Shown piece by piece: positions 1-18,749 of a stretch of DNA of 64,000 nt. Made by a program: the position numbers and the translations under genes. The stretch covers positions 505,947 to 569,946 of the forward strand of contig JACJZF010000001.1 of assembly GCA_020635725.1 (NCBI GenBank). Direction: 5' to 3'. Below the pieces are notes generated by a model, which was given only the letters and a program-made list of their open reading frames with translations, ran no database searches and was not told where the DNA came from. Each line of letters opens with the position of its first letter. Within the stretch, counting starts at the first letter, position 1. The stretch comes from Flavobacteriales bacterium. Its GTDB lineage: Bacteria; Bacteroidota; Bacteroidia; Flavobacteriales_F; PHOS-HE28.

Positions 1-331
1 CGAAACGAGAATCCGCTGTAACGAGCTGCAGGCTGAGGAAGGCCGCTGTGGCGGCGATGACCGCATCGGGGAATTTCATCCGGTACTTGCGCCGAAGCAC
101 GATGGTTCGCTCTTGGATCACATGAGTGAACTCCATCACCTTGACCTGGCCGAGCAACGCCCGGATCACCTCCTCCCCGTTGGCATCCAGATCCGGACGG
201 CTCAACAGTTCAACTTTGGTGATCACCGAGATGAAGACCGTACTGTCTTGAAGTAAGGCCTCCAATTCATCATCGCCATTCAGCAGGTACTGGACGATGT
301 TGGTGTCCAGCACCAGACTAGGCCCACTCAT
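1..331 (-). CDS. Type II toxin, PIN-domain (VapC-like). The C-terminal end is cut off by the window edge.
   Basis: Reverse translation from ATG (complement of 329-331) gives MSGPSLVLDTNIVQYLL...PDAVIAATAAFLSLQLVTADSRF. The conserved PIN acidic residues are present (LDTN near the N-terminus, PDAVIAATA, TADSRF). Confidence 0.7.
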   Translation of the reverse strand, partial: MSGPSLVLDTNIVQYLLNGDDELEALLQDSTVFISVITKVELLSRPDLDANGEEVIRALLGQVKVMEFTHVIQERTIVLRRKYRMKFPDAVIAATAAFLSLQLVTADSRF

Positions 332-489
332 CCCGAAGCTTGCGCTGATGCTTCACGGGATCGCCCTTCAGAGGCAATGCACCGTTGAAGCGCTTGGCAT
401 CGAAGCCCGATGCCTTCTTGGTCCGGCCCTTCTTCAAGAGGCTCTTCAGCTTGCGGGGCGTGGTATTCCGCTTGACGATGACCACCATG
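318..489 (-). CDS. Small antitoxin-like protein (56 aa) upstream of, and overlapping, the PIN toxin
   Basis: Reverse ORF MVVIVKRNTTPRKLKSLLKKGRTKKASGFDAKRFNGALPLKGDPVKHQRKLRDEWA. Its stop overlaps the toxin start by 14 nt, the usual VapB-VapC arrangement. It is shorter than 60 aa, so it is absent from the ORF track. Confidence 0.45.
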
Positions 490-665
490 ATGGTCAAAGA
501 TATGCGCCCTTGGTCGGCATGACCCCAGCGGCGTGGTCTTCGCCGGCCTCACCAAGAAGCACCTGCCACGCGGGAAATGGCGCCACCTGAGCGAGAAGGA
601 GGTGCTGTTCCTGACGAAGAGGAAGTAGGCACGGCCGGGTTTTCTGCCAGACCGAGCAAGCGCGG

Positions 666-968
666 CTACTTCTTCCGTCGCTTGAGTTTCGTCCGTGGCT
701 GTTGGCTGGTATGGAACACGCGGTACACCACCAGCTCGCCATGTCAGGTGCCGAAGACCAATACGTATGGGAATCCCTTCAAGGGAGTCTGACGCATGTG
801 CCTGTGCACCACCGGAGCACCTTTGGGAAACTGCCGTACGAGCGCTTCACACGCGAGCACGGCCTCCAGGAATCGCTCATCCAGCCCGTCTTGCTGGGCG
901 CGGTAGCAGCGCATCGCCTCGGCGATATCAGCGATCGCCTCGTCCCGGTAAACGACACGGAGCGTCAT
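666..968 (-). pseudogene. ParE/RelE-family toxin interrupted by an in-frame TGA (complement of 744-746)
   Basis: The 74-aa ORF MTLRVVYRDEAIADIAEA...FPYVLVFGT stops at TGA. The same frame then continues HGELVVYRVFHTSQQPRTKLKRRKK*, which is the conserved ParE C-terminus (YRV..H...P motif). Confidence 0.6.
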
Positions 969-1216
969 CCACGCACGGCCTTCCGCACGCGTCGCACCAT
1001 TTGCTCACGCGAATAGCTCTTGCCTTCACCGCGCAGATAGCGTGAGTGCGCCGCGTCGAGCTGGGCCTTCTGGTCATCGCTCATCTCGAAACTGAATCCT
1101 TGGTTCAGCACCATGTCAACAGACCGCAGCTCGGACTCATCGTCCGATTCGAGGATCTGCTTCGCCAAGGCGACCTTGAGTTCTGTGAGCTTCATGGCTG
1201 ACTGCGCTTGATCCAA
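965..1216 (-). CDS. Putative addiction-module antidote (TIGR02574-like) paired with the ParE-like toxin
   Basis: MDQAQSAMKLTELKVALAKQILESDDESEL...MSDDQKAQLDAAHSRYLRGEGKSYSREQMVRRVRKAV. There is a 4-nt ATGA overlap with the downstream toxin start. Confidence 0.55.
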   Translation of the reverse strand: MDQAQSAMKLTELKVALAKQILESDDESELRSVDMVLNQGFSFEMSDDQKAQLDAAHSRYLRGEGKSYSREQMVRRVRKAVRG

Positions 1217-1269
1217 AGATAGCCTTGTGCCCTAGCGATGATTCAGATGCGGGGAGGAGGCCAGGTATG

Positions 1270-1600
1270 GCGCGCTCACTCCACGATCAGCCGCTGCGCC
1301 TCTAGGCGCCCATCAGTTCCCATGAGCTCGAGCAGGTACAACCCGCTCTCCGGAATCCGCATCGTTTCAGTGGGGCCGCTCACGGAGCGCTCAAGAACGA
1401 CCCGGCCCATGGCATCGCGCACCATCACGCGGCAGCGGCCGAGCCGTGGGTCGAGGGAGAGCCGCACTTCTCCATTGCTCGGGTTGGGATACGCGCTGAA
1501 CAATTGATTCGCGGCAACCGATGGCAGGCCATTCGGGTCCTGCGCCAGCTTGATCACGAACGCGTTCCCTGGGTCGGGGTGGTCGAAGGAGTCCACACCC
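1270..1600. repeat. Copy A of a ~330-bp near-identical segment (the 3' end of the SBBP paralog)
   Basis: Direct comparison with 3020-3350 shows about 98% nucleotide identity. Confidence 0.8.
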
Positions 1601-2904
1601 ACATTGAAGGGATGGCTCCCGGTGGCGCCCACCAGGAAAAGGTCTGAGCCGCTCACGAGCAGGTTGCCGGCCAGATCCAAGGAGGTGCCGCCCATCTGCA
1701 GGTCAGAGACCATGCTGCCAGCGTTGTCGAAGACCTGCAACCTCATGTCCTTGGACCCGTAGCCCGAGAGGTTGCCGTCCACAGACCAGGCGGTGCCCGT
1801 GAACTCGGAGAGCATGAGAATGTCCGAGTCCCACAGTTGGATGTCCTGGGCGAAGCTCTCGCCTTGCTCCCAGTACGGCGGAACCGTCACCCAGAGCCGC
1901 TCGCCATCGGGGGAGAAGGCGGTGAGGAACCACTGGGCCTCCCCGCCATTCTGCGGCCCCACGGCCGGGTATCCGTTGGAAAAGCGGAGCATCGAGTCGG
2001 CATAGGTGCCCGCAAGCACCACGTCTCCGGTCGCGGTGCATGTTAAGCCTACGAACGCCGATACCTCACCCCAGATGTTGCAATACACGTAGCGCACCCA
2101 CTGGACGGAGCCTTCGGTATCATATTTCGCCAGGAAGGAGGCGATGTACGCGGTTCCCGGCAGGCTCATGCTCAGATTGTCGAAGTGGGCGATGCCTGGT
2201 GAATCCAAGTACCCTATGATGTACACGTTCGATTGAGCGTCCGTACTAATCGCATAGGCTCTATCCGCTCCATTTGCGACTCCTGCGGTTCTCCTCCAAA
2301 TGAGGTCGCCCTGCCCAGTGAATTTCGAGAGGAAGACCTCCCCAGCGTCCATCCCGGTCAGTAGAATCTCCCCCTCAGCATTGAGCACGATTCCGCGTAC
2401 CCCAGCATGATCGCCTTCTATTTCTGCCGTCCAGATCGTATCGCCTTGGGTATTGAGCTTCAACAGCTCGATACCAACGGTGCCCGATGCTCCGGATTCA
2501 TTCCCAAAGAAGTGGAGTTCATCTGTGTAGCTCGCGGCAACAATGAGGTTGCCCGATGCATCAGACGCCGTGGAGCACCACATCGTATAGCCGCCAACGG
2601 TAACGAAGTTCTCCGCGATTCGCTTTGTCCATAGTGGATTTAGGTCACTATCGAGTCGTGCACAGTAAACAGCGCGTGTAGCTTCCGTGCGTAGAGTGTC
2701 CTGGCCGATTATCAAGGATTCCGAGAACAACCCAACAACGTAGCAGCCACCATCAGGTGCGGTCACGACGGATCGATTGTAGTACATGGAGCTGGTGCCC
2801 TCTGGGCCGAGAATTATCTGATCGGCAATGGAAAATGATTGTGCATGACTACAGAGCTGAAGCAGCTGGGTGGCGATTCCTAACCAATAGTAGAGCTCGC
2901 GCAT
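1276..2904 (-). CDS. T9SS-sorted secreted protein with SBBP-type beta-propeller repeats and a Por_Secre_tail C-terminal domain
   Basis: Signal peptide MRELYYWLGIATQLLQLCSHAQS (start moved to the internal Met at 2904). Repeated Y..GG.G.D.G.AI..D..GN.Y..G motifs. The C-terminus is NPSNGEVRLSLDP...GLYLLELMGTDGRLEAQRLIVE. Confidence 0.7.
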   Translation of the reverse strand: MRELYYWLGIATQLLQLCSHAQSFSIADQIILGPEGTSSMYYNRSVVTAPDGGCYVVGLFSESLIIGQDTLRTEATRAVYCARLDSDLNPLWTKRIAENFVTVGGYTMWCSTASDASGNLIVAASYTDELHFFGNESGASGTVGIELLKLNTQGDTIWTAEIEGDHAGVRGIVLNAEGEILLTGMDAGEVFLSKFTGQGDLIWRRTAGVANGADRAYAISTDAQSNVYIIGYLDSPGIAHFDNLSMSLPGTAYIASFLAKYDTEGSVQWVRYVYCNIWGEVSAFVGLTCTATGDVVLAGTYADSMLRFSNGYPAVGPQNGGEAQWFLTAFSPDGERLWVTVPPYWEQGESFAQDIQLWDSDILMLSEFTGTAWSVDGNLSGYGSKDMRLQVFDNAGSMVSDLQMGGTSLDLAGNLLVSGSDLFLVGATGSHPFNVGVDSFDHPDPGNAFVIKLAQDPNGLPSVAANQLFSAYPNPSNGEVRLSLDPRLGRCRVMVRDAMGRVVLERSVSGPTETMRIPESGLYLLELMGTDGRLEAQRLIVE

Positions 2905-3019
2905 AGTCAATGACTTCCTTTTGGTAACGGAATGTGAGTCAACTCGGCCATCCACTGTGTCGTTGATTACTGTGGCCTGCTCACTCGGGGATGGTCTTCC
3001 AGCGTAGGCATCAGTTCAT

Positions 3020-3350
3020 CGCGCTCACTCCACGATTAGCCGCTGCGCCTCAAGGCGCCCATCAGTTCCCATGAGCTCGAGCAGGTACAAGCCGCTCTCC
3101 GGAATCCGCATCGTTTCAGTGGGGCCGCTCACGGAGCGCTCAAGAACGACCCGGCCCATGGCATCTCGCACCACCACGCGGCAGCGGCCGAGCCGTGGGT
3201 CGAGGGAGAGCCGCACTTCTCCATTGCTCGGGTTGGGATACGCGCTGAACGACTGATTCGCGGCAACCGATGGCAGGCCATTCGGTTCCTGCGCCAGCTT
3301 GATCACGAACGCGTTCCCCGGATCGGGGTGGTCGAAGGAGTCCGATCCAA
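3020..3350. repeat. Copy B of the ~330-bp near-identical segment
   Basis: Same as above. The two genes diverge 5' of this block. Confidence 0.8.
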
Positions 3351-4653
3351 CATGCAATGGATGACTGAAAGTGCTGGCCAAAACAACCACACCTTCATTC
3401 GAGGCATGCAACTCGCCTCCTACTTCAATCAGGCTGCCTCCGATCTGATAATCCTCTTCAAGCGCCCCGGCGCTATCGTAGAGTCGTACCCGAAGGTCAT
3501 CCCATCCGTAACAGGATATCATCCCTTGGGTAGAGGTGACGTTTCCGTAGAATTGGTCAAGTACGGCGTATGAGTCGCCATACTTGTCGATGTCTTGTGC
3601 ACGACTGTAGCCTTGGTCGGAATAATCATCGGTGGTCACCCAGATGCGCTCTCCGAAGTCGTCGAAGGCCACCAAGAATGAGACCGGGGACCCCGCTGGC
3701 CTTGATCCTACTGGAGAGAGACCATTCGAGAACCGCAGAACCGCATCCTCATAATTGCCCACGAGGACCACTCCGCCGCTAGGTGGACAGCACAATGCGG
3801 TGAAGAACGTCCCCTCGGCCCAAAGCGCGCTGTACACATATCGGACCCATTGAACGGTTCCGAAAGAATTGTACTTAGCGACAAAGGACACATTGAAAGC
3901 GCCACTTGCCAGGGGGACAACCAGGCCATCGAAGTTGGCAACACCAGGTGGGGCAAGGATCCCGACGACATACACATTCGAGAACGCGTCTACCTCTATG
4001 GCGTACCCTTGGTCAAAACCGCTCGGGGTGCCCGCTGTCCTTCGCCAGAGAAAGTCACCGGCAGAACTGTACTTGGCGATGAAAACATCCCCAGAGTCTT
4101 GACCTGTGATGAATATCTCGCCCAGTGAATTGGTTGTTATGCCCTTCCCTCCGAGTTTATCCCCTTGAACGGTTCGAGTCCAAACTGTATCGCACTGCTC
4201 ATTCAGCCTGATGAGTTCTATTCCCATACCTCCAGTGTCGCCAATCGTTTGTTCGAAGAGGAATAGTTCATCGGTGAAGCTCATGCCTACGATGCATCCA
4301 CCGACGCCATCTGGGGCTGTCGAAACGGTCATGTGATAGGTGCCCTCGGTCACCCGGTTCTCGGCGATTCTCCGGAACCAGATTGGCTCGAGTTCGGCAC
4401 TCAGCCGAATGTGATAGACCGCATCTGTTTCCGAAGTTCGGAGGGTGTCGAGCCCGTAGAAGACTGAATCTGGGAACACGCCCGTTATGTATTGGCCATC
4501 GTTGATGGCCTCAGCCATGCTGCGCGTCAGATAGATGGATGAAGATGTCTCATTGACCAACGGCGATGACTGACCGAGGGCAAGGGATTGTGCCGACGAG
4601 GAATGCTGGAGGAGAAGCCAGCATAGCAAGAATTGAAAGGCCGTCCGCGCCAT
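3025..4653 (-). CDS. Paralogous T9SS-sorted SBBP beta-propeller protein
   Basis: Signal peptide MARTAFQFLLCWLLLQHSSSAQS. The repeat architecture matches 1276-2904, and the last ~110 aa are nearly identical to that gene, including the T9SS C-terminal domain. Confidence 0.7.
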   Translation of the reverse strand: MARTAFQFLLCWLLLQHSSSAQSLALGQSSPLVNETSSSIYLTRSMAEAINDGQYITGVFPDSVFYGLDTLRTSETDAVYHIRLSAELEPIWFRRIAENRVTEGTYHMTVSTAPDGVGGCIVGMSFTDELFLFEQTIGDTGGMGIELIRLNEQCDTVWTRTVQGDKLGGKGITTNSLGEIFITGQDSGDVFIAKYSSAGDFLWRRTAGTPSGFDQGYAIEVDAFSNVYVVGILAPPGVANFDGLVVPLASGAFNVSFVAKYNSFGTVQWVRYVYSALWAEGTFFTALCCPPSGGVVLVGNYEDAVLRFSNGLSPVGSRPAGSPVSFLVAFDDFGERIWVTTDDYSDQGYSRAQDIDKYGDSYAVLDQFYGNVTSTQGMISCYGWDDLRVRLYDSAGALEEDYQIGGSLIEVGGELHASNEGVVVLASTFSHPLHVGSDSFDHPDPGNAFVIKLAQEPNGLPSVAANQSFSAYPNPSNGEVRLSLDPRLGRCRVVVRDAMGRVVLERSVSGPTETMRIPESGLYLLELMGTDGRLEAQRLIVE

Positions 4654-4895
4654 GATTTAGAATGCTCTAATCGGCATCCGAACGAATGAGAATTCACTCA
4701 TGATGTGCATGATGAATCGCTGTGAACGCGGTGTTCCGAAGGTAGGGTGTCCGCGAGACATGGACCGGGTTATTGGCCCATCAAGTGTGTTGACTTTACA
4801 GATACTCCAGCCCCACCTCACATTGCCCTGTGAACGAACTGCACGGCAATTGCCGTTAGGGGCTATAGGGTGCGGGTAGCTTTCGCACCTTCCCC

Positions 4896-7541
4896 ATGCT
4901 GCGCAAGGCCCGCAACCTCCTTTTGGCATTCGCCGCCCTGCTGGCGCTGGGCTTCGGGGTGCTGCTGGTGCTGGCCAACGTGTACGAGGATGAGGTGAAG
5001 GCCCGGCTGCTCGGCGCCGTGAACGAGCGGCTGCGCGCCCCGGTGAGCGTAGGTGCCATCGACCTCACCCTCATCGCCCGCTTCCCCATGGCCAGCCTGC
5101 GCCTGCGCGATGTGAAGGTGGATGAGGTGCGCACCGACTCCCTGCCCGCCGATACCCTGCTCACGGCCGACGAGGTCTTCCTGGAGTTCAACCTCCTCGC
5201 GCTCTTCGGCGGCAGCCAGACCGTGGAGCGCATCCACACGGCCAACGTGGCGCTCTTCCCCGCGCTGGACCGCAACGGCGTGGAGAACTACATCATCTGG
5301 CGCAGCGATTCCGCCTCCGCCTCTTCGCCGGTGGAACTGGAGCGGCTCACCTTCGATGGCTTGCACGTGCGCTTCACCGACGCCCGCAATGGCCTGCACA
5401 TCGCGGCCGAGAGCGAGGACCTGCTGCTCGCCGGCCGTTTCGGGGAGGAGAGCCAGCTGCGCGCCGAAGGCGATGTGCACCTGCTCTCGCTGGAGCGCGA
5501 CGGGAAATCCCTCCTCGACGAGCGCCGGGCGCAACTGGCCCTCGATATGAGCTTCGGCAAGGAGGCCTTCCAGATATCCAAGGGTGAAGTGCAGCTGGGC
5601 AAGGTTCCGCTGCAGCTCACCCTGGCGCTCACCCAAGGAGCAAAGGGTCGCGAGATAGACCTGCGCGCCAACGGCCTCGGCCTGGACCTCGGTCGGGTGA
5701 TGGAGCAGCTGCCCGCGTCGATCCAGGGCCCGATGAAGCGTTTCGGCCTTTCGGGGGGCATCGACCTGGCCATCAAGTACGCGGGCTCGTTGGAAGGCGA
5801 TGGTCCGCCGCTCTCCATTGGTGCGCAGGTGAGCCAGGGGCGCATGAAGGAGCGCACGAGCGGCACGCAGTTCACCGAGATCAACGGCGAGCTGGCCATG
5901 GACATCGCGCCCGACGGCAGCATCCGCAAGCTGAAGGTGAAGGACCTGAGCGCGCGCAGCGGCTCGGGCAGTTTGCGTGCCGACTGGTCCTCCGGCGGCG
6001 TGAAGAAGGCGCCGGTGAAGGCCGATATCCGCTGCGACATCGCCATCGCCGACCTGCTGCGCATGGCCGGCGTGGATACCCTGGAGCAGGCCGCGGGCCG
6101 TTTCGTCGCTGACATCAAGGTCGATGGCACCCTGCGCGACATGGCCGACCTGCGCGTGAGCGACCTGAAGGCCGTGCGCGTCACGGGCCATGCCGCCTTG
6201 CGCGATGCCGGCTTGAAGCTGAAGGGCGTGCGCCACCGCGTGGAGCACCTGGACGCTGAGCTGGCGCTGAACGGGAACGACGCCACGGTGCGCGGGTTGA
6301 AGGCGGATATCGCCGGATCGCCGATCGAGCTGAGCGGCACCCTGCGCAACCTGGTGCCCTACGCGCTCTTCGAGCAGGAGCACCTGGTGATCGAGGCCAA
6401 AGGCCGCAGTCCGCGCATCGACCTGGGCGCCTTGCTGCAAGGCGATGAATCCGGTCATGGAACGGCCTACGCGCTGGTACTGCCGGCGGCCATCGAGCTG
6501 GACCTGCGCGCGCAGGTGGATGAGCTGGTCTTCGAGGACTTCAAGGCCACCGGCATCAACGGCACCATCCGCATGAAGGACCGCGTGCTGCGCGCCTCGC
6601 CGCTCTCCTTCGCCACCGCCGACGGTGCCGTGCTGGGCAGCTTGGAGCTCGATGCACGCGGCGGCGGCTCGGCCAGCTGGTATCCGCTGGCGATCGAGGC
6701 CGACGTGAAGGACATCGCGATCCAACAACTCTTCGCCGAGTTCCGCGATTTCGGGCAGGAATTCATCGGCCAACGGCACCTCAGCGGGCGCGCGCGGGCC
6801 AGCATCGCCTTCCGCGCGCCGCTGTCACCCGCCATGCGCATCGACCGCGACCGCATCGCGTGCACCATCGACATCGCCGTGGAGAACGGCGGCATCAAGG
6901 GCCAGGGCCAGCTCATCGCCGTGGCCGACTACCTGAAGAAGAACAAGCTCGTGGCGCCCTTCGTCGATACCGAAGAGCTGCGGCGACGCCTGGCCGATGT
7001 GCGCTTCGCGAAGCTGGAGAACCGCGTGGAGATCAAGGACGGCGCCGTGCATGTACCGCTGATGGAGGTGCGCAGCAACGCTCTTGACATCGAGCTGAGC
7101 GGCACGCACTGGTTCGACGACCGCATCGATCACCACCTCAACTTCCGTCTCGGCGACCTCTTCCGCCTGGGCAAGCCCACCGCCGATGAGTTCGGTCCCA
7201 TCGCCGATGACGGCACCGGCATGCGCGTCTTCCTGCACATGCACGGCACCGCCCAGGCCCCGCTCTTCGAGAACGATGGCGCCATGGCCGCCAACAGGCG
7301 ACGCCAGCAGTTCCAGCAGGAGAAGCAGCAGCTGCGCACCATCCTGCGCGAGGACATACTCGGTCACAAGTCGGAAGGCACTACCACCGCGCAGGCTCCC
7401 ACGGGTGGCCGGGTGATCATCGAACAGGAAGGAGATAGCACCCGCAACGAGCTGGTGGTGGCCCCGAAGAAGCCGAAAGGGCGCCTCTTCGCCGAGCCCA
7501 AGGAGAAGAAGGAGCCGGGGCGGATCATCATCGAGGACTGA
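4896..7541 (+). CDS. AsmA-family outer-membrane biogenesis protein
   Basis: N-terminal transmembrane helix followed by VSVGAIDLTLIARFPMASLRLRDVKVDE, which is characteristic of the AsmA N-terminal domain. The remainder is a long beta-rich region of 881 aa. Confidence 0.65.
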   Translation: MLRKARNLLLAFAALLALGFGVLLVLANVYEDEVKARLLGAVNERLRAPVSVGAIDLTLIARFPMASLRLRDVKVDEVRTDSLPADTLLTADEVFLEFNLLALFGGSQTVERIHTANVALFPALDRNGVENYIIWRSDSASASSPVELERLTFDGLHVRFTDARNGLHIAAESEDLLLAGRFGEESQLRAEGDVHLLSLERDGKSLLDERRAQLALDMSFGKEAFQISKGEVQLGKVPLQLTLALTQGAKGREIDLRANGLGLDLGRVMEQLPASIQGPMKRFGLSGGIDLAIKYAGSLEGDGPPLSIGAQVSQGRMKERTSGTQFTEINGELAMDIAPDGSIRKLKVKDLSARSGSGSLRADWSSGGVKKAPVKADIRCDIAIADLLRMAGVDTLEQAAGRFVADIKVDGTLRDMADLRVSDLKAVRVTGHAALRDAGLKLKGVRHRVEHLDAELALNGNDATVRGLKADIAGSPIELSGTLRNLVPYALFEQEHLVIEAKGRSPRIDLGALLQGDESGHGTAYALVLPAAIELDLRAQVDELVFEDFKATGINGTIRMKDRVLRASPLSFATADGAVLGSLELDARGGGSASWYPLAIEADVKDIAIQQLFAEFRDFGQEFIGQRHLSGRARASIAFRAPLSPAMRIDRDRIACTIDIAVENGGIKGQGQLIAVADYLKKNKLVAPFVDTEELRRRLADVRFAKLENRVEIKDGAVHVPLMEVRSNALDIELSGTHWFDDRIDHHLNFRLGDLFRLGKPTADEFGPIADDGTGMRVFLHMHGTAQAPLFENDGAMAANRRRQQFQQEKQQLRTILREDILGHKSEGTTTAQAPTGGRVIIEQEGDSTRNELVVAPKKPKGRLFAEPKEKKEPGRIIIED

Positions 7542-14285: not shown

Positions 14286-16238
14286 ATGCCTGAATCCGCA
14301 CTGATCGCTCCTTGGCAGTATTGCCCCAGCCTTACGCGCTACGAGCGCTGGCGCACGCGTGAGGTGCGCGTGGGCAGCGTGGGCATCGGCGGCACGAATC
14401 CGATCCGGGTGCAGAGCATGACCACCACGGATACCATGGACACAGCGGCCACCGTGGCGCAGAGCATCCGCATGATCGAGGCGGGCTGCGAGCTGGTGCG
14501 CATCACGGCACCGAGCAGGAAAGAGGCCGAGAACCTCCAGGTGATCAAAGAGCAGCTACGCGCCGCCGGCTTCGAGACCCCGCTCGTCGCCGACATCCAC
14601 TTCACGCCGAATGCCGCGGAGATCGCCGCGCGCATCGTGGAGAAGGTGCGCGTGAACCCTGGCAACTACGCGGATAAGAAGCGGTTCGATGTGCGCGAGT
14701 ACACCGACGCGGAATACGCCGATGAACTGGACCGCATCCGTGAGCGCTTCACCCCGCTGGTGCGCATCTGCAAGGAGCACGGCACCGCCATGCGCATCGG
14801 CACCAACCACGGCAGCCTCAGCGACCGCATCCTGAACCGCTACGGCGACACGCCCGAGGGCATGGTGGAGAGCGCCTTCGAGTTCCTGCGCATCTGCCGC
14901 GACGAGAACTACCACGAGATCGTGCTAAGCATGAAGGCCAGCAACGTGCAGGTGATGGTGCAGGCCTATCGCCTGCTCGTGCACCGCATGATGTCCGAAG
15001 GCTGGGACTACCCGCTGCACCTGGGCGTCACCGAAGCCGGCGATGGCGAGGACGGCCGTATCAAGAGTGCGGCGGGCATCGGGGCGCTGCTCGAAGACGG
15101 CCTGGGCGATACCGTGCGCGTGAGCTTGACCGAGGAGCCGGAAGCGGAGATCCCGGTTGCGCGGGGGTTGGTGGCCCGCTGCACAGCGCGTGCAGGGCAT
15201 GACGTGATTCCCGAAGTGGCGCGGGCACCGTGCAATCCGTTCTCGCATGAACGGCGGCTCGCGCGCGAGGTGCTGAACATCGGCGCGCGCCATGTGCCCG
15301 TGGTGATGGCCGACCTCAGCAATCGCAAGGCGATCACCCCTGCCGCGCTCTTCGCATGGGGCTATCGCTACAGCGTGCCGCTGGACAAGTGGAACATCAC
15401 CGATCAGGCCTGCGACTATGCCTTCATTGGCAAGAACACCATCGACTTCGAGATACCCGGCACCTTGGGGATCATCCAAGAGCACGCCACCTGGCTCGGC
15501 AACAATGGCAAAGAGCGGCACTACCCGTTCCTGAACAAGCGGGAATACCTCGGCGGCGCGCAACGGCACCCGCACTTCAACCTGGTGTACGCCACCTGGC
15601 CGGATCTGGATGATGCCTTCATCGCCGCGCTGAAGGCCGATTCCGCGGCCGTGCTGCTTATCGACACGTACAACGCGCACGGCATGGCCGAGCAGCGCCG
15701 GCTCTTCTTCGAACTGATCGCGCAGGAATGTCCGGTGCCGGTGATCATCGGCAGGGCCTATGGCGTTATCACCAACGATGCGCTGGTGCTCGACAGCAGC
15801 ACGGACATGGGTCCGCTGCTGATTGACGGCCTGGGCGATGGCATCTTCATCGCTGATGAACAAGGTGGCCGCGAGGACCTCGTGTGCCGCACGGCCTTCG
15901 GCATCCTGCAGGCCACGCGCACCCGCACCAGCAAGACCGAGTACATCAGCTGCCCCAGCTGCGGCCGCACGCTCTTCGACCTGCAGGAGACCACGGCCAA
16001 GATCCGCGCGCGCACGAGTCACCTGAAAGGAGTGAAGATCGGCATCATGGGATGCATTGTGAACGGCCCCGGCGAGATGGCCGACGCCGACTTCGGCTAC
16101 GTGGGCACCGGTCCGGGTGTGATCACACTGTACCGCGAGAAGGAAGTGGTGAAGCGCAATGTGCCCAGCGCGCAGGCCGTGGATGAGCTGATCGCACTGA
16201 TCAAGGAGCACGGGATGTGGGTGGAGGCGGAAGCCTGA
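14286..16238 (+). CDS. ispG: 4-hydroxy-3-methylbut-2-en-1-yl diphosphate synthase (long-form IspG/GcpE)
   Basis: RTREVRVGSVGIGGTNPIRVQSMTTTDTMD... and the C-terminal CPSCGRT Fe-S motif. Confidence 0.9.
   Translation: MPESALIAPWQYCPSLTRYERWRTREVRVGSVGIGGTNPIRVQSMTTTDTMDTAATVAQSIRMIEAGCELVRITAPSRKEAENLQVIKEQLRAAGFETPLVADIHFTPNAAEIAARIVEKVRVNPGNYADKKRFDVREYTDAEYADELDRIRERFTPLVRICKEHGTAMRIGTNHGSLSDRILNRYGDTPEGMVESAFEFLRICRDENYHEIVLSMKASNVQVMVQAYRLLVHRMMSEGWDYPLHLGVTEAGDGEDGRIKSAAGIGALLEDGLGDTVRVSLTEEPEAEIPVARGLVARCTARAGHDVIPEVARAPCNPFSHERRLAREVLNIGARHVPVVMADLSNRKAITPAALFAWGYRYSVPLDKWNITDQACDYAFIGKNTIDFEIPGTLGIIQEHATWLGNNGKERHYPFLNKREYLGGAQRHPHFNLVYATWPDLDDAFIAALKADSAAVLLIDTYNAHGMAEQRRLFFELIAQECPVPVIIGRAYGVITNDALVLDSSTDMGPLLIDGLGDGIFIADEQGGREDLVCRTAFGILQATRTRTSKTEYISCPSCGRTLFDLQETTAKIRARTSHLKGVKIGIMGCIVNGPGEMADADFGYVGTGPGVITLYREKEVVKRNVPSAQAVDELIALIKEHGMWVEAEA
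16202..16228. repeat. 27-bp direct repeat, left copy (last codons of ispG)
   Basis: caaggagcacgggatgtgggtggaggc is identical to 17500-17526. Confidence 0.85.
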
Positions 16239-16301
16239 GGCGCGCTGCGCAGAACAGCCGGCCATAACCGCTTGATGTTCAGACAACCAACATGGTTGGG
16301 T

Positions 16302-16336
16302 ACAATTTCGGAATCAGATTCCGAAATTGTACCTTT
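16302..16336. promoter_or_regulatory. Perfect 17-bp inverted repeat (GGTACAATTTCGGAATC A GATTCCGAAATTGTACC) 5 nt upstream of the ATPase start
   Basis: Exact palindrome read directly. It is AT-richer than the surroundings. The weak T-tract after it argues for an operator or recombination site rather than a terminator. Confidence 0.5.
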
Positions 16337-16340
16337 GGGC

Positions 16341-17498
16341 ATGGTACAGCGTGAAGCGGAGTCCGTGCTACTCCAGTTGGCAGCGGAGTTCAAGGCCGTG
16401 GCCGTGGTAGGACCGCGACAATCCGGCAAGACCACCTTGGTGCGTTCGGCCTTTCAGGACAAGCCGTACGTGAGCCTCGAAGATCCGGACGTACGCACCT
16501 TCGCGACCGAGGACACCCGAAGCTTTTTAGCACAGTACCCGACAGGAGCGGTGCTCGATGAAGCGCAACGGGTGCCAGCGCTCTTCTCCTATCTCCAGCG
16601 GATACTGGATGATAGTCGTGAGCGGGGGAAGTTCATCCTGACCGGCTCGAACCACTTTCTGATGCAGGACAACATCTCCCAAAGCCTGGCAGGCCGCATC
16701 GCGTACCTCGAACTGCTTCCATTCACCCTGAACGAACTACCGCCAGGCGCAGTTGATGACGCGGACGATTGGATGCTGAAGGGTGGATATCCTGCCATCC
16801 ATGAGGGAGGTATCGGTCGCACCAGTTGGTTCGCTAATTACATCCGCACCTATGTGGAGCGCGACGTCCGCCAGATCAAGAATATTTCGGACCTCCACGT
16901 ATTCGAGCGCTTCCTGCGGCTCTGCGCAGGCCGCACCGGTCAGCTGCTGAACATGAGCAACCTCGCACTTGAAACAGGCGTGGACAGCAAGACCATCGCG
17001 AGCTGGATCGGTATCCTGGAAAGCTGCTTCATCGTTCACCTGTTGCGTCCCTACCACGTCAACTTCAACAAGCGCGTGGTGAAGACCCCCAAGCTTCTGT
17101 TCCTCGATACAGGTCTGGCCTGTGCCCTGCTGGGTATCTCCGATCGGAAACAGCTCGCCCTGCATCCCATGCGCGGATCGCTCTTCGAGAACCTGGTCAC
17201 TTCGGAGCTGATCAAACGACTTGGACATCAAGGACGCCATGCCCAGAGCTGGTTCTGGCGCGATCAGAAAGGCCATGAGGTGGATCTGTTGATCGAAGAA
17301 GCAGGTCGTATCATCCCGATCGAGATCAAGTCCGGGCGCACCATCCAAGGGGAATTCTTCGGAGGCCTTGAATACTGGACCAAGCTCAGCGGCGGAACGG
17401 CTGGCGTAATGATCCATGGCGGCGATGCGAGCCAAGAGCGGTCGAATGGCATAAAGGTCCTTCCATGGAACAGGCTGTTCGAAGCGATTGACGCATGA
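16341..17498 (+). CDS. AAA+ ATPase (AAA_14 plus DUF4143 family)
   Basis: Walker A VVGPRQSGKTTL. Walker B/DEAQ LDEAQRV. The C-terminal region is DUF4143-like. The start is moved to the ATG at 16341. Confidence 0.8.
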   Translation: MVQREAESVLLQLAAEFKAVAVVGPRQSGKTTLVRSAFQDKPYVSLEDPDVRTFATEDTRSFLAQYPTGAVLDEAQRVPALFSYLQRILDDSRERGKFILTGSNHFLMQDNISQSLAGRIAYLELLPFTLNELPPGAVDDADDWMLKGGYPAIHEGGIGRTSWFANYIRTYVERDVRQIKNISDLHVFERFLRLCAGRTGQLLNMSNLALETGVDSKTIASWIGILESCFIVHLLRPYHVNFNKRVVKTPKLLFLDTGLACALLGISDRKQLALHPMRGSLFENLVTSELIKRLGHQGRHAQSWFWRDQKGHEVDLLIEEAGRIIPIEIKSGRTIQGEFFGGLEYWTKLSGGTAGVMIHGGDASQERSNGIKVLPWNRLFEAIDA

Positions 17499-17499
17499 G

Positions 17500-17526
17500 C
17501 AAGGAGCACGGGATGTGGGTGGAGGC
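17500..17526. repeat. 27-bp direct repeat, right copy (a vestigial ispG 3' end reading KEHGMWVEAGG*)
   Basis: Identical 27-mer starting 2 nt after the ATPase stop. It is in-frame with a stop after 3 further codons. Confidence 0.85.
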
Positions 17527-17545
17527 AGGGGGCTAACTTTCCGGC

Positions 17546-18160
17546 ATGATGCGCCCCTTGCTGCTGCTCGGCTTCACCCTCCTGTTCCTTCCCGCAGGGG
17601 CCCAGCGTACCCGGGCCCTGGAACTGCTGGCCTCTGCCATGGAGGGTTCATACACCAGTGCGGAGCAGGCCGCGACGGACACGAGCTACTTCGAGATCGA
17701 GCTGGAGATGGTGCGGATCTGGCCCAAGCGGCGCGATGGTGCCTGGTTCTACGTGGAGCAGGCCACGGCGGCCCGCAAGGACAAACCCTACCGCCAGCGC
17801 GTGTATCACCTCCAGCAGGTGGATGACAGCACCTTCACCAGCAGCATCCTCACCATCCGTGGCGGGGAGGCCTGGTACGGCGCCTATGGCGACCCGATGC
17901 GCTTGGCCACCCTGTCTCCCGATTCCCTTGATGCGCTGGAGGGCTGCACCATCACCCTGCGCCGTCAGCAGAGCATCTATACCGGCAGCACGCACGGCCG
18001 CGATTGCCCCAATAGCCGCGGCGGTGCGGCCTATGCCACGAGTGAAGTGAGCCTGCTCAGCGACCGGATGATCAGCTGGGACCGCGGCTTCGATGCCGAC
18101 GGCAAGCAGGTGTGGGGTGCGGAGAAGGGCGGTTACGTCTTCATCAAGCGCTCCCGCTGA
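17546..18160 (+). CDS. Secreted CpcT/CpeT-like (DUF1001) beta-barrel protein
   Basis: Signal peptide. SYFEIELEMVRIW...GAWFYVEQA...RQRVYHL resembles the non-cyanobacterial CpcT family. Confidence 0.45.
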   Translation: MMRPLLLLGFTLLFLPAGAQRTRALELLASAMEGSYTSAEQAATDTSYFEIELEMVRIWPKRRDGAWFYVEQATAARKDKPYRQRVYHLQQVDDSTFTSSILTIRGGEAWYGAYGDPMRLATLSPDSLDALEGCTITLRRQQSIYTGSTHGRDCPNSRGGAAYATSEVSLLSDRMISWDRGFDADGKQVWGAEKGGYVFIKRSR

Positions 18161-18165
18161 ACACG

Positions 18166-18195
18166 CCGAAGCCGTGCCTTACGGGGCACGGCTTC
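18166..18195 (+). terminator. Candidate hairpin terminator (10-bp stem aagccgtgcc/ggcacggctt, 6-nt loop)
   Basis: Lies directly after the stop of the 17546-18160 gene. The U-tract is weak. Confidence 0.35.
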
Positions 18196-18461
18196 AGCGT
18201 ATGGTGTATGGATGTGGTTCAGTCGTTGGCCGCCACCTGCGCGGTGACATTCTCCTGCTTGGGGCTGCTGCCATTGCTGGCGGCCACGCATACGAGCAGG
18301 ATGAGGAGTACGGCTGCTTGGAGGAGAGTGCGGTACTTCGGTTCCATGTTTTGGATCGGTTCGGTGGTTCTGAGCCTGTGAACGGGCGCTTTCCCCATCG
18401 GTTCTGCCTTTTCGACGGATCCGGAGTGGTGATCGATGGAGCTTGTCAAGCCCATGTCCGC

Positions 18462-18749
18462 CTATTTCCCCAAGTAGCCCTTGATCGCCGCCACATAGGC
18501 CTCGAACGCCCGCAGGCCTTGCGCGGATACGCGGCAGGCGGTGTTGGGGTAGTTGTCCTTGAAGCTCTTCGTCACTTCGATGTAGCCTGCCTCCTTCAAC
18601 TTGGTGATCTGCACGCTCAGGTTGCCACGCGTGGCGCCGGTGCGCTCCAGCAGGTAGTTGAAATCGGCGCTATCCACGGCCACCAGCAGGCTCATCACGG
18701 CCAGGCGGAGCTGGTTGTGCAGGATCGGGTCAAGCGGTGCGAAGCCCAT
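18462..18749 (-). CDS. Winged-helix transcriptional regulator
   Basis: 95 aa with an HTH_34-like pattern (LLERTGATRGNLSVQITKLKEAGYIEV). Confidence 0.55.
   Translation of the reverse strand: MGFAPLDPILHNQLRLAVMSLLVAVDSADFNYLLERTGATRGNLSVQITKLKEAGYIEVTKSFKDNYPNTACRVSAQGLRAFEAYVAAIKGYLGK

Follow-up and report, generated by a model that had tools for sequence, protein, structure and literature searches.

The window considered here, a 64,000-nt stretch of the genome of a Flavobacteriales bacterium (GenBank assembly GCA_020635725.1, contig JACJZF010000001.1, positions 505,947 to 569,946), contains a perfect 35-bp palindrome directly before a gene encoding an ATPase of the AAA_14/DUF4143 type. As sequence comparison and a structural model of the protein suggest, the palindrome is likely to be a dyad operator that would be bound by the winged helix of the adjoining ATPase itself, probably for autorepression. 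The binding of the palindrome by the gene's own product is the better-supported step and is considered very likely, and a repressive effect, rather than activation or a dual switch, is held to be moderately probable. The symmetry of the element is established, as are its conservation with the gene, its placement with respect to a consensus promoter, the winged helix predicted with confidence in the protein, and the co-variation between protein and DNA; the last four of these back the autoregulatory operator that had been among the roles proposed in the sequence-only reading, an earlier annotation of the window.

The palindrome upstream of the ATPase gene

The palindrome occupies positions 16299–16333, has no strand of its own, and consists of two 17-nt arms (16299–16315 and 16317–16333) around a single central A, GGTACAATTTCGGAATC-A-GATTCCGAAATTGTACC. 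The sequence-only reading had quoted the sequence correctly and rightly called it an exact palindrome; the coordinates assigned to it, 16302–16336, were 3 nt too high, and its distance to the ATG of the ATPase gene at 16341, put there at 5 nt, is in fact 7 nt (TTTGGGC). The part conserved in the gene family is a 33-bp core (16300–16332), which can be read as GTACAATTTCGGAAT CAG ATTCCGAAATTGTAC, that is, as a 15-nt arm, a free 3-nt spacer and a second 15-nt arm. The two-fold symmetry is complete, and the size (17+1+17, with a 15+3+15 core) suits a dimeric DNA-binding protein.

The element was earlier described as AT-rich and very unlikely by chance, and both descriptions hold. Its GC content is 40%, against 63.5% for the window, and its 17-nt arms make it the longest perfect inverted repeat of the window, the runner-up having arms of 12 nt. 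About 1.2e-5 such repeats are expected by chance per 64 kb, and in 30 shuffles of the window the arms were never longer than 13 nt. No second copy of the 17-mer arm was found in the window, even when up to 3 mismatches were allowed. A small inverted repeat, CCAAC-ATG-GTTGG (16286–16298), adjoins the left arm of the palindrome; it is confined to the closest relatives of the window and is absent from three of the homologous loci collected in this work, L003, L023, and L012.

Occurrence of the palindrome in the gene family

Homologs of the ATPase gene were gathered through exact-protein look-ups and a metagenome scan with protein alignment, which gave 91 AAA_14/DUF4143 genes, 42–87% identical to that of the window, located in unrelated contexts in hosts of 29–65% GC. 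A 15+3+15 palindrome with at least 11 of 15 symmetric positions lies no more than 90 nt upstream of 76 of these 91 genes. With the threshold set at 12 or more of 15 positions, it is present in the upstream regions of 70 of 89 homologs, compared with 9 of 1780 shuffled upstream regions (0.5%), none of 82 windows located 305–400 nt upstream, and 4 of 84 windows just downstream of the gene. In approximately 80% of the 89–91 homologs the palindrome is situated 2–24 nt upstream. The reverse scan, with the pattern GTACA-N4-CGGA-N7-TCCG-N4-TGTAC, covered one genome per species (185,579 species, 596 Gb) and returned 22 loci, each from a different genome record. About 14 of the 22 resemble the consensus beyond the fixed bases, and 10 of these directly abut the start of a DUF4143 ATPase gene, their hosts being Flavobacteriales, Chitinophagaceae, Cytophagales, a Gemmatimonadaceae metagenome-assembled genome (MAG) and a betaproteobacterial MAG. 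The remaining approximately 8 loci are asymmetric, and their number is about that calculated by chance for 18 fixed bases. Both directions of the co-occurrence check suggested in the sequence-only reading thus connect the site with the gene, and the absence of the palindrome from other DUF4143 loci, named there among the observations that would speak against its proposals, is clearly not what was found.

Judged from these comparisons, the palindrome belongs to the gene family and not to this single locus. Its arms are identical to those of the window at 28–30 of 30 positions in loci whose proteins are only 57–61% identical and whose GC content is 31–52%, while the 3-nt centre varies freely, and distant loci are similar only from the left edge of the palindrome onwards, with an abrupt onset. 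That the element is AT-rich in a GC-rich genome can be put down to selection, which holds its sequence against the composition of the host. The organism of the window and nearly all of its relatives belong to Bacteroidota. A second conserved element was also sought upstream, and the similarity found, TAAC...CTGATAATCA, is limited to the clade of at least 72% identity and disappears in more distant loci. As a check for a phage target, the tight palindrome pattern was searched for in the IMG/VR viral contigs, with 0 matches.

The ATPase and its predicted fold

The ATPase gene (16341–17498, plus strand) encodes 385 amino acids and has two Pfam domains, AAA_14 (E 3e-52) and DUF4143 (E 1e-27). Its mechanically called open reading frame (ORF) opens at a TTG at 16272; since close homologs all begin with M-[IV]-x-R-E-A-E at the equivalent ATG, the ATG at 16341 is the real start. 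The protein matches the candidate defence family PDC-S01 of PADLOC (COG1373) with an E value of 5e-108 and has the features that define this family, an AAA_14 P-loop and a DUF4143 region with a PD-(D/E)XK motif. In the literature the proteins of PDC-S01 join an ATPase to a PD-(D/E)XK domain, and the family, a defence candidate without experimental validation, takes fourth place by frequency among the defence-type systems of prokaryotes (PMC12988326); DUF4143 has been listed in the PD-(D/E)XK superfamily with function unknown (PMC3424549). The ATPase has more than 8000 homologs. Its Walker A motif is GPRQSGKT, and the residues D73, E74, D315, E328, and K330 are invariant or nearly so. There is no solved homolog according to a sequence search of the PDB, and no NCBIfam family covers the protein. 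Within the literature searchable for DUF4143, COG1373, PDC-S01, and the Pfam accessions, no ligand, target, cis element, DNA specificity or regulation was found.

The AlphaFold2 model of the protein (mean predicted local distance difference test score, pLDDT, 89; predicted template modelling score 0.90) consists of an AAA+ core, a canonical winged helix, and a PD-(D/E)XK fold. The predicted winged-helix domain covers codons 185–254 (16893–17102, plus strand), with a pLDDT of about 90, and is composed of helices 185–196 and 205–212, a recognition helix at 216–228, a strand at 232–235, the wing, and a strand at 251–254. A winged helix-turn-helix (HTH)-like character had already been suggested for the DUF4143 region from sequence, and the model agrees with it. 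The predicted nuclease fold follows at codons 278–360 (17172–17420, plus strand), with D315 and E328-x-K330. The best fold matches in the PDB are AAA+/winged-helix proteins, namely PAB2304 (2qen), SSO1545 (2fna), Orc1/Cdc6 on origin DNA (2qby), MalT, and RuvB.

Co-variation of protein and proposed operator

Comparison of 76 gene–operator pairs revealed that both arms of the palindrome change together, in discrete classes such as [GT]TACAATTT[CT]GGAAT, GGAAAAATATGGAAT, GGACAAATCCGGAAT, and TGACAAATTGTCAAT; in L003, for instance, AATTTC is replaced by AAATTC on both arms. These changes are tracked by two short segments of the winged helix. The first is the N-terminus of the recognition helix, D215-S216-K217-T218 (16983–16994, plus strand), the residues of which follow operator bases 10–12. 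Residue 216, the variable position of G-V-D-x-K-T, pairs with base 10 as S with C at 13 loci, N, V or T with T at 26, H with G at 13, and Q with C at 3, and residue 217 pairs with bases 11–12 as K with GG (64 loci) or N with T[CA]. The second segment is K244-R245 in the wing (17070–17075, plus strand), where residue 245 follows base 4: R with C at 67 loci, T with A at 6, and Q or V with T.

Because pairing tables can reflect shared ancestry, residue and base changes falling on the same branch were counted on a tree constructed from the protein minus residues 185–255, for 3033 residue–base pairs. R245 and base 4 rank first among them, all three residue changes coinciding with three of the four base changes (p=7e-6; approximately 0.02 after Bonferroni correction). 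D215 and base 11 are second (p=1.5e-4), and S216 and base 10 fourth, with 7 of 11 operator changes coinciding with a residue change (p=2.5e-4). The geometry would also be sensible on the model, with the recognition helix reading the inner bases and the wing a base located 6–8 bp farther outward; about 12 bp, roughly one helical turn, separate the two inner boxes.

Overlap with a putative promoter and the proposed mode of action

The right arm of the palindrome runs into a putative promoter. The box TACCTTTG (16330–16337, plus strand) is an exact match to the −7 element TAnnTTTG of Bacteroidota sigma-A; it shares its first 4 nt with the end of the right arm, and 3 nt separate it from the ATG. 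At 53 of 90 homolog loci such a box ends 3–4 nt ahead of the ATG. In Flavobacterium the −7 box occupies positions −12 to −5 (PMC9723704), and transcription would therefore begin with the A of the ATG or right beside it, so that the match to the consensus implies a leaderless ATPase mRNA. Leaderless mRNAs constitute only about 4–5% of Bacteroidota transcripts (PMC7366714, PMC9723704). The distances from the palindrome to the ATG cluster at 8–9 nt and at 20–22 nt. In the former class the site overlaps the −7 box; in the latter the −7 box is a separate one further on, and the −33 region lies within the site. The site of the window spans approximately −42 to −8 relative to the ATG. Matches to the sigma-70-type TACAAT that occur inside the arms were set aside as probably irrelevant in a Bacteroidota genome.

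We infer the following mode of action. Two copies of the protein would bind as a dimer, their two winged-helix domains reading the two 15-bp half-sites, with the recognition helix D215-S216-K217-T218 contacting the inner CGG of ...TTTCGGAAT and the wing residue R245 the outer GTAC. On the predicted promoter of a leaderless mRNA, the site would take in the −33 region together with the initial 4 nt of the TAnnTTTG −7 box. A protein bound there, across the core promoter, would most probably repress its own expression: the occupied site would block RNA polymerase and thereby keep in check a potentially toxic, horizontally transferred ATPase-nuclease.

Several points weigh against this operator reading. 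About 15 of the 91 homologs have no recognisable palindrome, and in the L004 lineage the left arm is degenerate (13 of 15 positions) although the gene is intact. Conversely, three consensus-like palindromes (L025, L030, and L031) occur without the gene, and the site may therefore have uses beyond autoregulation. With respect to co-variation, only R245 with base 4 survives correction for multiple testing, and contrasts between sister pairs point in the same direction but are underpowered, the best having a p of about 0.005 and none surviving multiple testing. The promoter is a consensus match only, and in the 20–22 nt class, where it spans about −54 to −22, the site would be just as suitable for activation, as C-boxes are. 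AAA+ proteins usually form rings, moreover, and the picture of a dimer on a dyad may be too simple.

The ispG-flanked insert

In the window the ATPase gene lies between ispG/GcpE (14286–16238) and a gene of the CpeT family (17546–18160), the palindrome beginning 60 nt past the ispG stop codon. The gene and its 5' region form a 1298-bp insert of about 57% GC, whose only content is the palindrome and the ATPase gene, so that the location of the palindrome inside a putative cassette, proposed earlier, is borne out. The insert is bracketed by a direct repeat of 27 nt when exact matches are counted and 31 nt when near-exact ones are. The left copy (16198–16228, plus strand) is the working 3' end of ispG (...LIKEHGMWVEAEA*), and the right copy (17496–17526, plus strand) starts at the stop codon of the ATPase gene, still translates as KEHGMWVEAGG*, and is a relic ispG 3' end, part of the context and not of the operator. 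As the copies on both sides are the ispG 3' end, the cassette is a real one, an insertion into the 3' end of ispG that duplicated that end. The window was also searched for a third copy of the ispG repeat, as the border of a larger island, and has none. The same arrangement is found in the relatives L003, L004–L011, L037, and L023, with ATPases 82–87% identical to that of the window. In L023 the right copy has decayed to about 70% identity, which makes the insertion an old one and the repeat a relic.

Two features of the surroundings may be mentioned separately. Directly after the cpeT stop codon there is a GC-rich hairpin (18163–18200) with 16-nt arms that are 94% complementary and include an 11-nt perfect core; it has no T run, is unlike the AT-rich palindrome, and likely represents the local terminator style. 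In L012, where the homolog is 72% identical, HicA-toxin, PIN-domain, and KilA-N genes are located between fragments of a cation-transporting ATPase gene (1–5200). This region looks like a mobile or defence island, and no flanking direct repeats were found in it.

Solo palindromes and distant homologs

Among the loci where the palindrome stands without an intact ATPase gene, only L017 retains a remnant of it; there, a still perfect palindrome (3989–4021) abuts a decayed N-terminal ATPase fragment, and no such remnant was detected in L025, L030, or L031. The solo palindrome of L025 (2451–2483) is placed between convergent genes and flanked by A7 and T6 runs, and looks like a bidirectional terminator. 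That of L031 (7181–7213), from a Thiothrix MAG, has the CGGAGTTGAACTCCG core in common with the betaproteobacterial locus L026. L030 belongs to an organism closely related to that of the window, with an ispG product 97.6% identical and a cpeT product only 74% identical in amino acid sequence. At the same site (L030, 300–1200) it carries a different, small cassette, encoding a 131-amino-acid membrane protein, between two copies of about 60 nt of the ispG 3' end, and after this cassette a solo perfect palindrome (1025–1057) with a TAnnTTTG-like box facing the opposite way and no ATPase gene. In view of this alternative cassette, the 3' end of ispG looks like a hot spot of insertion or recombination.

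More distant members of the superfamily have other repeats in the corresponding position. The plasmid-borne homologs of Agrobacterium (L118, 390–516), Marinobacter (L121, 470–600) and Sinorhizobium (L122, 445–573), 31–36% identical to the ATPase of the window, are preceded not by a palindrome but by three to four direct repeats, (TCCGnnn)TGGACG, in an iteron-like pattern. An unrelated palindrome, its arms 22 nt long (TTAAACCTAGTTTAATTTAAGAT...), stops 3 nt short of the start codon of a homolog on a Moraxella bovis plasmid (L119, ~545–592; 36% identical). In L029 (1184–1343) the Gemmatimonadaceae contig carries a second DUF4143 paralog (45% identical); it has no 15+3+15 site, and an inverted repeat of other spacing, CATGTTATGAAA-N12-TTTCATGTCATG, runs into its start codon. 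The plasmid-borne cases hint that cognate repeats located upstream are a general trait of the superfamily, with differing architectures.

Alternative explanations

A position on a promoter and dyad symmetry would fit any dimeric repressor, and the palindrome might serve a transcription factor other than the ATPase, encoded by the host or by the element. This is quite unlikely, as the site and the gene go together in Bacteroidota, Gemmatimonadota, and Proteobacteria, where their neighbourhoods are unrelated and contain no adjacent regulator gene that is conserved, and the bases of the site co-change with residues in the recognition helix and wing of the ATPase. Still more improbable is a role at the RNA level, as a terminator or stabiliser of the ispG transcript or as a 5' structure of the ATPase mRNA. 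The predicted fold is indeed stable (−28.6 kcal/mol; z = −5.4), the palindrome comes 60 nt after the ispG stop, and the solo copy of L025, placed between two convergent genes, has A7 and T6 runs at its flanks. However, it is the sequence of the stem that is conserved and not merely its pairing, the palindrome lies upstream of the predicted transcription start, and the nearest upstream ORF is divergent in 11 of 49 loci and absent in 10 of 49. An intrinsic (Rho-independent) terminator was rejected in particular: the stem is only 40% GC and is followed by TTTGGG, with just 3 T residues, there are 0 terminator-like sites in 15800–18000, and the terminator-like hairpins of the window are GC-rich with arms of 10–12 nt, like that at 18163–18200. 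The sequence-only reading, which had listed an ispG terminator among the possible roles, had itself doubted it for its weak T-tract, and the location of the site after divergent ORFs at other loci speaks against it as well. No Rfam family matches the element; the sole hit of a permissive Rfam 15 scan of 15500–18500, to rox1, is spurious (21 bits, with a gathering score of 58; E 0.44). A dispersed repeat of the repetitive extragenic palindromic or miniature inverted-repeat transposable element type was likewise discarded, given the single copy in the window with 3 mismatches allowed and the 22 genome records behind the 22 loci of the reverse scan.

The palindrome could instead act in mobility, as a cassette end or attachment (att) core, or be a homing-type target of the protein's own PD-(D/E)XK nuclease, the catalytic residues of which are conserved. 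In line with this, the gene and the palindrome form a discrete, lower-GC insert flanked by a duplication of the ispG 3' end, the palindrome is the exact point from which distant loci are homologous, and solo palindromes exist, one of them (L030) at the ispG–cpeT site of a close relative without the ATPase. Nevertheless, we find this a shade less credible than an operator for another factor. About 70 nt separate the end of the left direct repeat from the palindrome, which is not part of the repeat, and the other end of the insert has no palindrome; flanking repeats occur only in the ispG-sited lineage and are missing, at a length of 10–12 nt or more, from 9 other loci, and their decay in L023 marks one old event. 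Furthermore, gene and intact site are found side by side throughout, which is the reverse of what a classical homing target shows; the scan of 185,579 genomes turned up no more than about 3 solo sites, and no integrase or transposase accompanies the unit. A recombination or att core, another of the roles put forward from the sequence, is accordingly not supported: the palindrome is single-copy, is not at an insert junction, many loci of the gene lack flanking repeats, and no recombinase gene is present between ispG and cpeT. A wider version of the idea, unlikely but less so than any of these alternatives, is that the site and the gene constitute a self-contained unit that moves horizontally, in which the AAA+ nuclease would be anchored to its own 33-bp site in the manner of Orc1. 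The anchored nuclease might guard or mark self DNA, or might cut the palindrome and thus promote its own insertion, and in this way the duplication of the ispG 3' end could be accounted for, as could the solo palindromes and the hot spot of recombination in L030.

Comparison with known systems and significance

An autoregulatory dyad operator is a well-known kind of element, and the instance described here is a new one on a large family of unknown function. Its closest counterparts appear to be wHTH autorepressors, AAA+ initiators, and C-box operators. The autorepressors of the BrxR/CapW type, which are winged HTH proteins, bind inverted repeats over the promoters of defence genes and keep these genes off until triggered; they are separate WYL-domain regulators of multi-gene operons, whereas here the regulator and the effector would be one protein. 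In Orc1/Cdc6 with its origin recognition boxes and in DnaA with DnaA boxes in its own promoter, an AAA+ ATPase uses a C-terminal winged helix or HTH to read specific repeats by its own gene, as the protein of the window would. One AAA+ monomer on each of the inverted half-sites is the Orc1 mode of binding, and Orc1/Cdc6 on origin DNA (2qby) is among the best fold matches of the ATPase. On the other hand, there is no AT-rich unwinding element, no helicase, and nothing to suggest replication here, the nuclease domain is absent from Orc1 and DnaA, and similarity at the sequence level is undetectable.

In restriction-modification (R-M) systems the C-boxes are palindromic operators of about 35 bp that precede a leaderless start and provide autogenous control of a toxic nuclease, which has to become established once transferred horizontally (PMC2632904, PMC2175313). 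The resemblance to the systems of C.PvuII, C.AhdI, and C.Esp1396I includes the palindrome of about 35 bp at a fixed short distance before the regulator's own start, a leaderless mRNA and a potentially toxic nuclease (both predicted here), horizontal transfer, and operator motifs that co-vary with protein subfamilies. There are also differences. C proteins are small Xre-type HTH proteins encoded apart from the nuclease, while the predicted winged helix of the window is inside an AAA+ ATPase-PD-(D/E)XK polypeptide; C systems have two adjacent C-boxes, 17–18 nt from the start, instead of one 15+3+15 dyad at 8–9 or 20–22 nt, and there is no methyltransferase partner here. Membership of the R-M C-protein family was rejected, as AAA_14 and DUF4143 are the only domains of the protein and its neighbours are ispG and cpeT; the logic is C-box-like, and the protein is not a member.

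Few uncharacterised proteins of bacteria and archaea are as abundant as those of the AAA_14/DUF4143 type (COG1373, PDC-S01). For annotation, the palindrome marks the true start codon and the putative promoter of these genes. If the operator reading is true, the family gains a specific long DNA site and a predicted reading head, the winged helix with residues 215–218 and 245, together with a testable code, in which S at residue 216 would read C, N, V or T would read T, and H would read G, R245 would read C4, and N at 217 would be paired with inner boxes of the TTGTCAAT type. It also suggests that the nuclease is under autogenous control through a leaderless mRNA, much as in R-M systems with C proteins. 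If instead the site and the gene form a mobile unit, PDC-S01/DUF4143 would be a new single-gene selfish or defence element with an evolvable DNA-recognition code.

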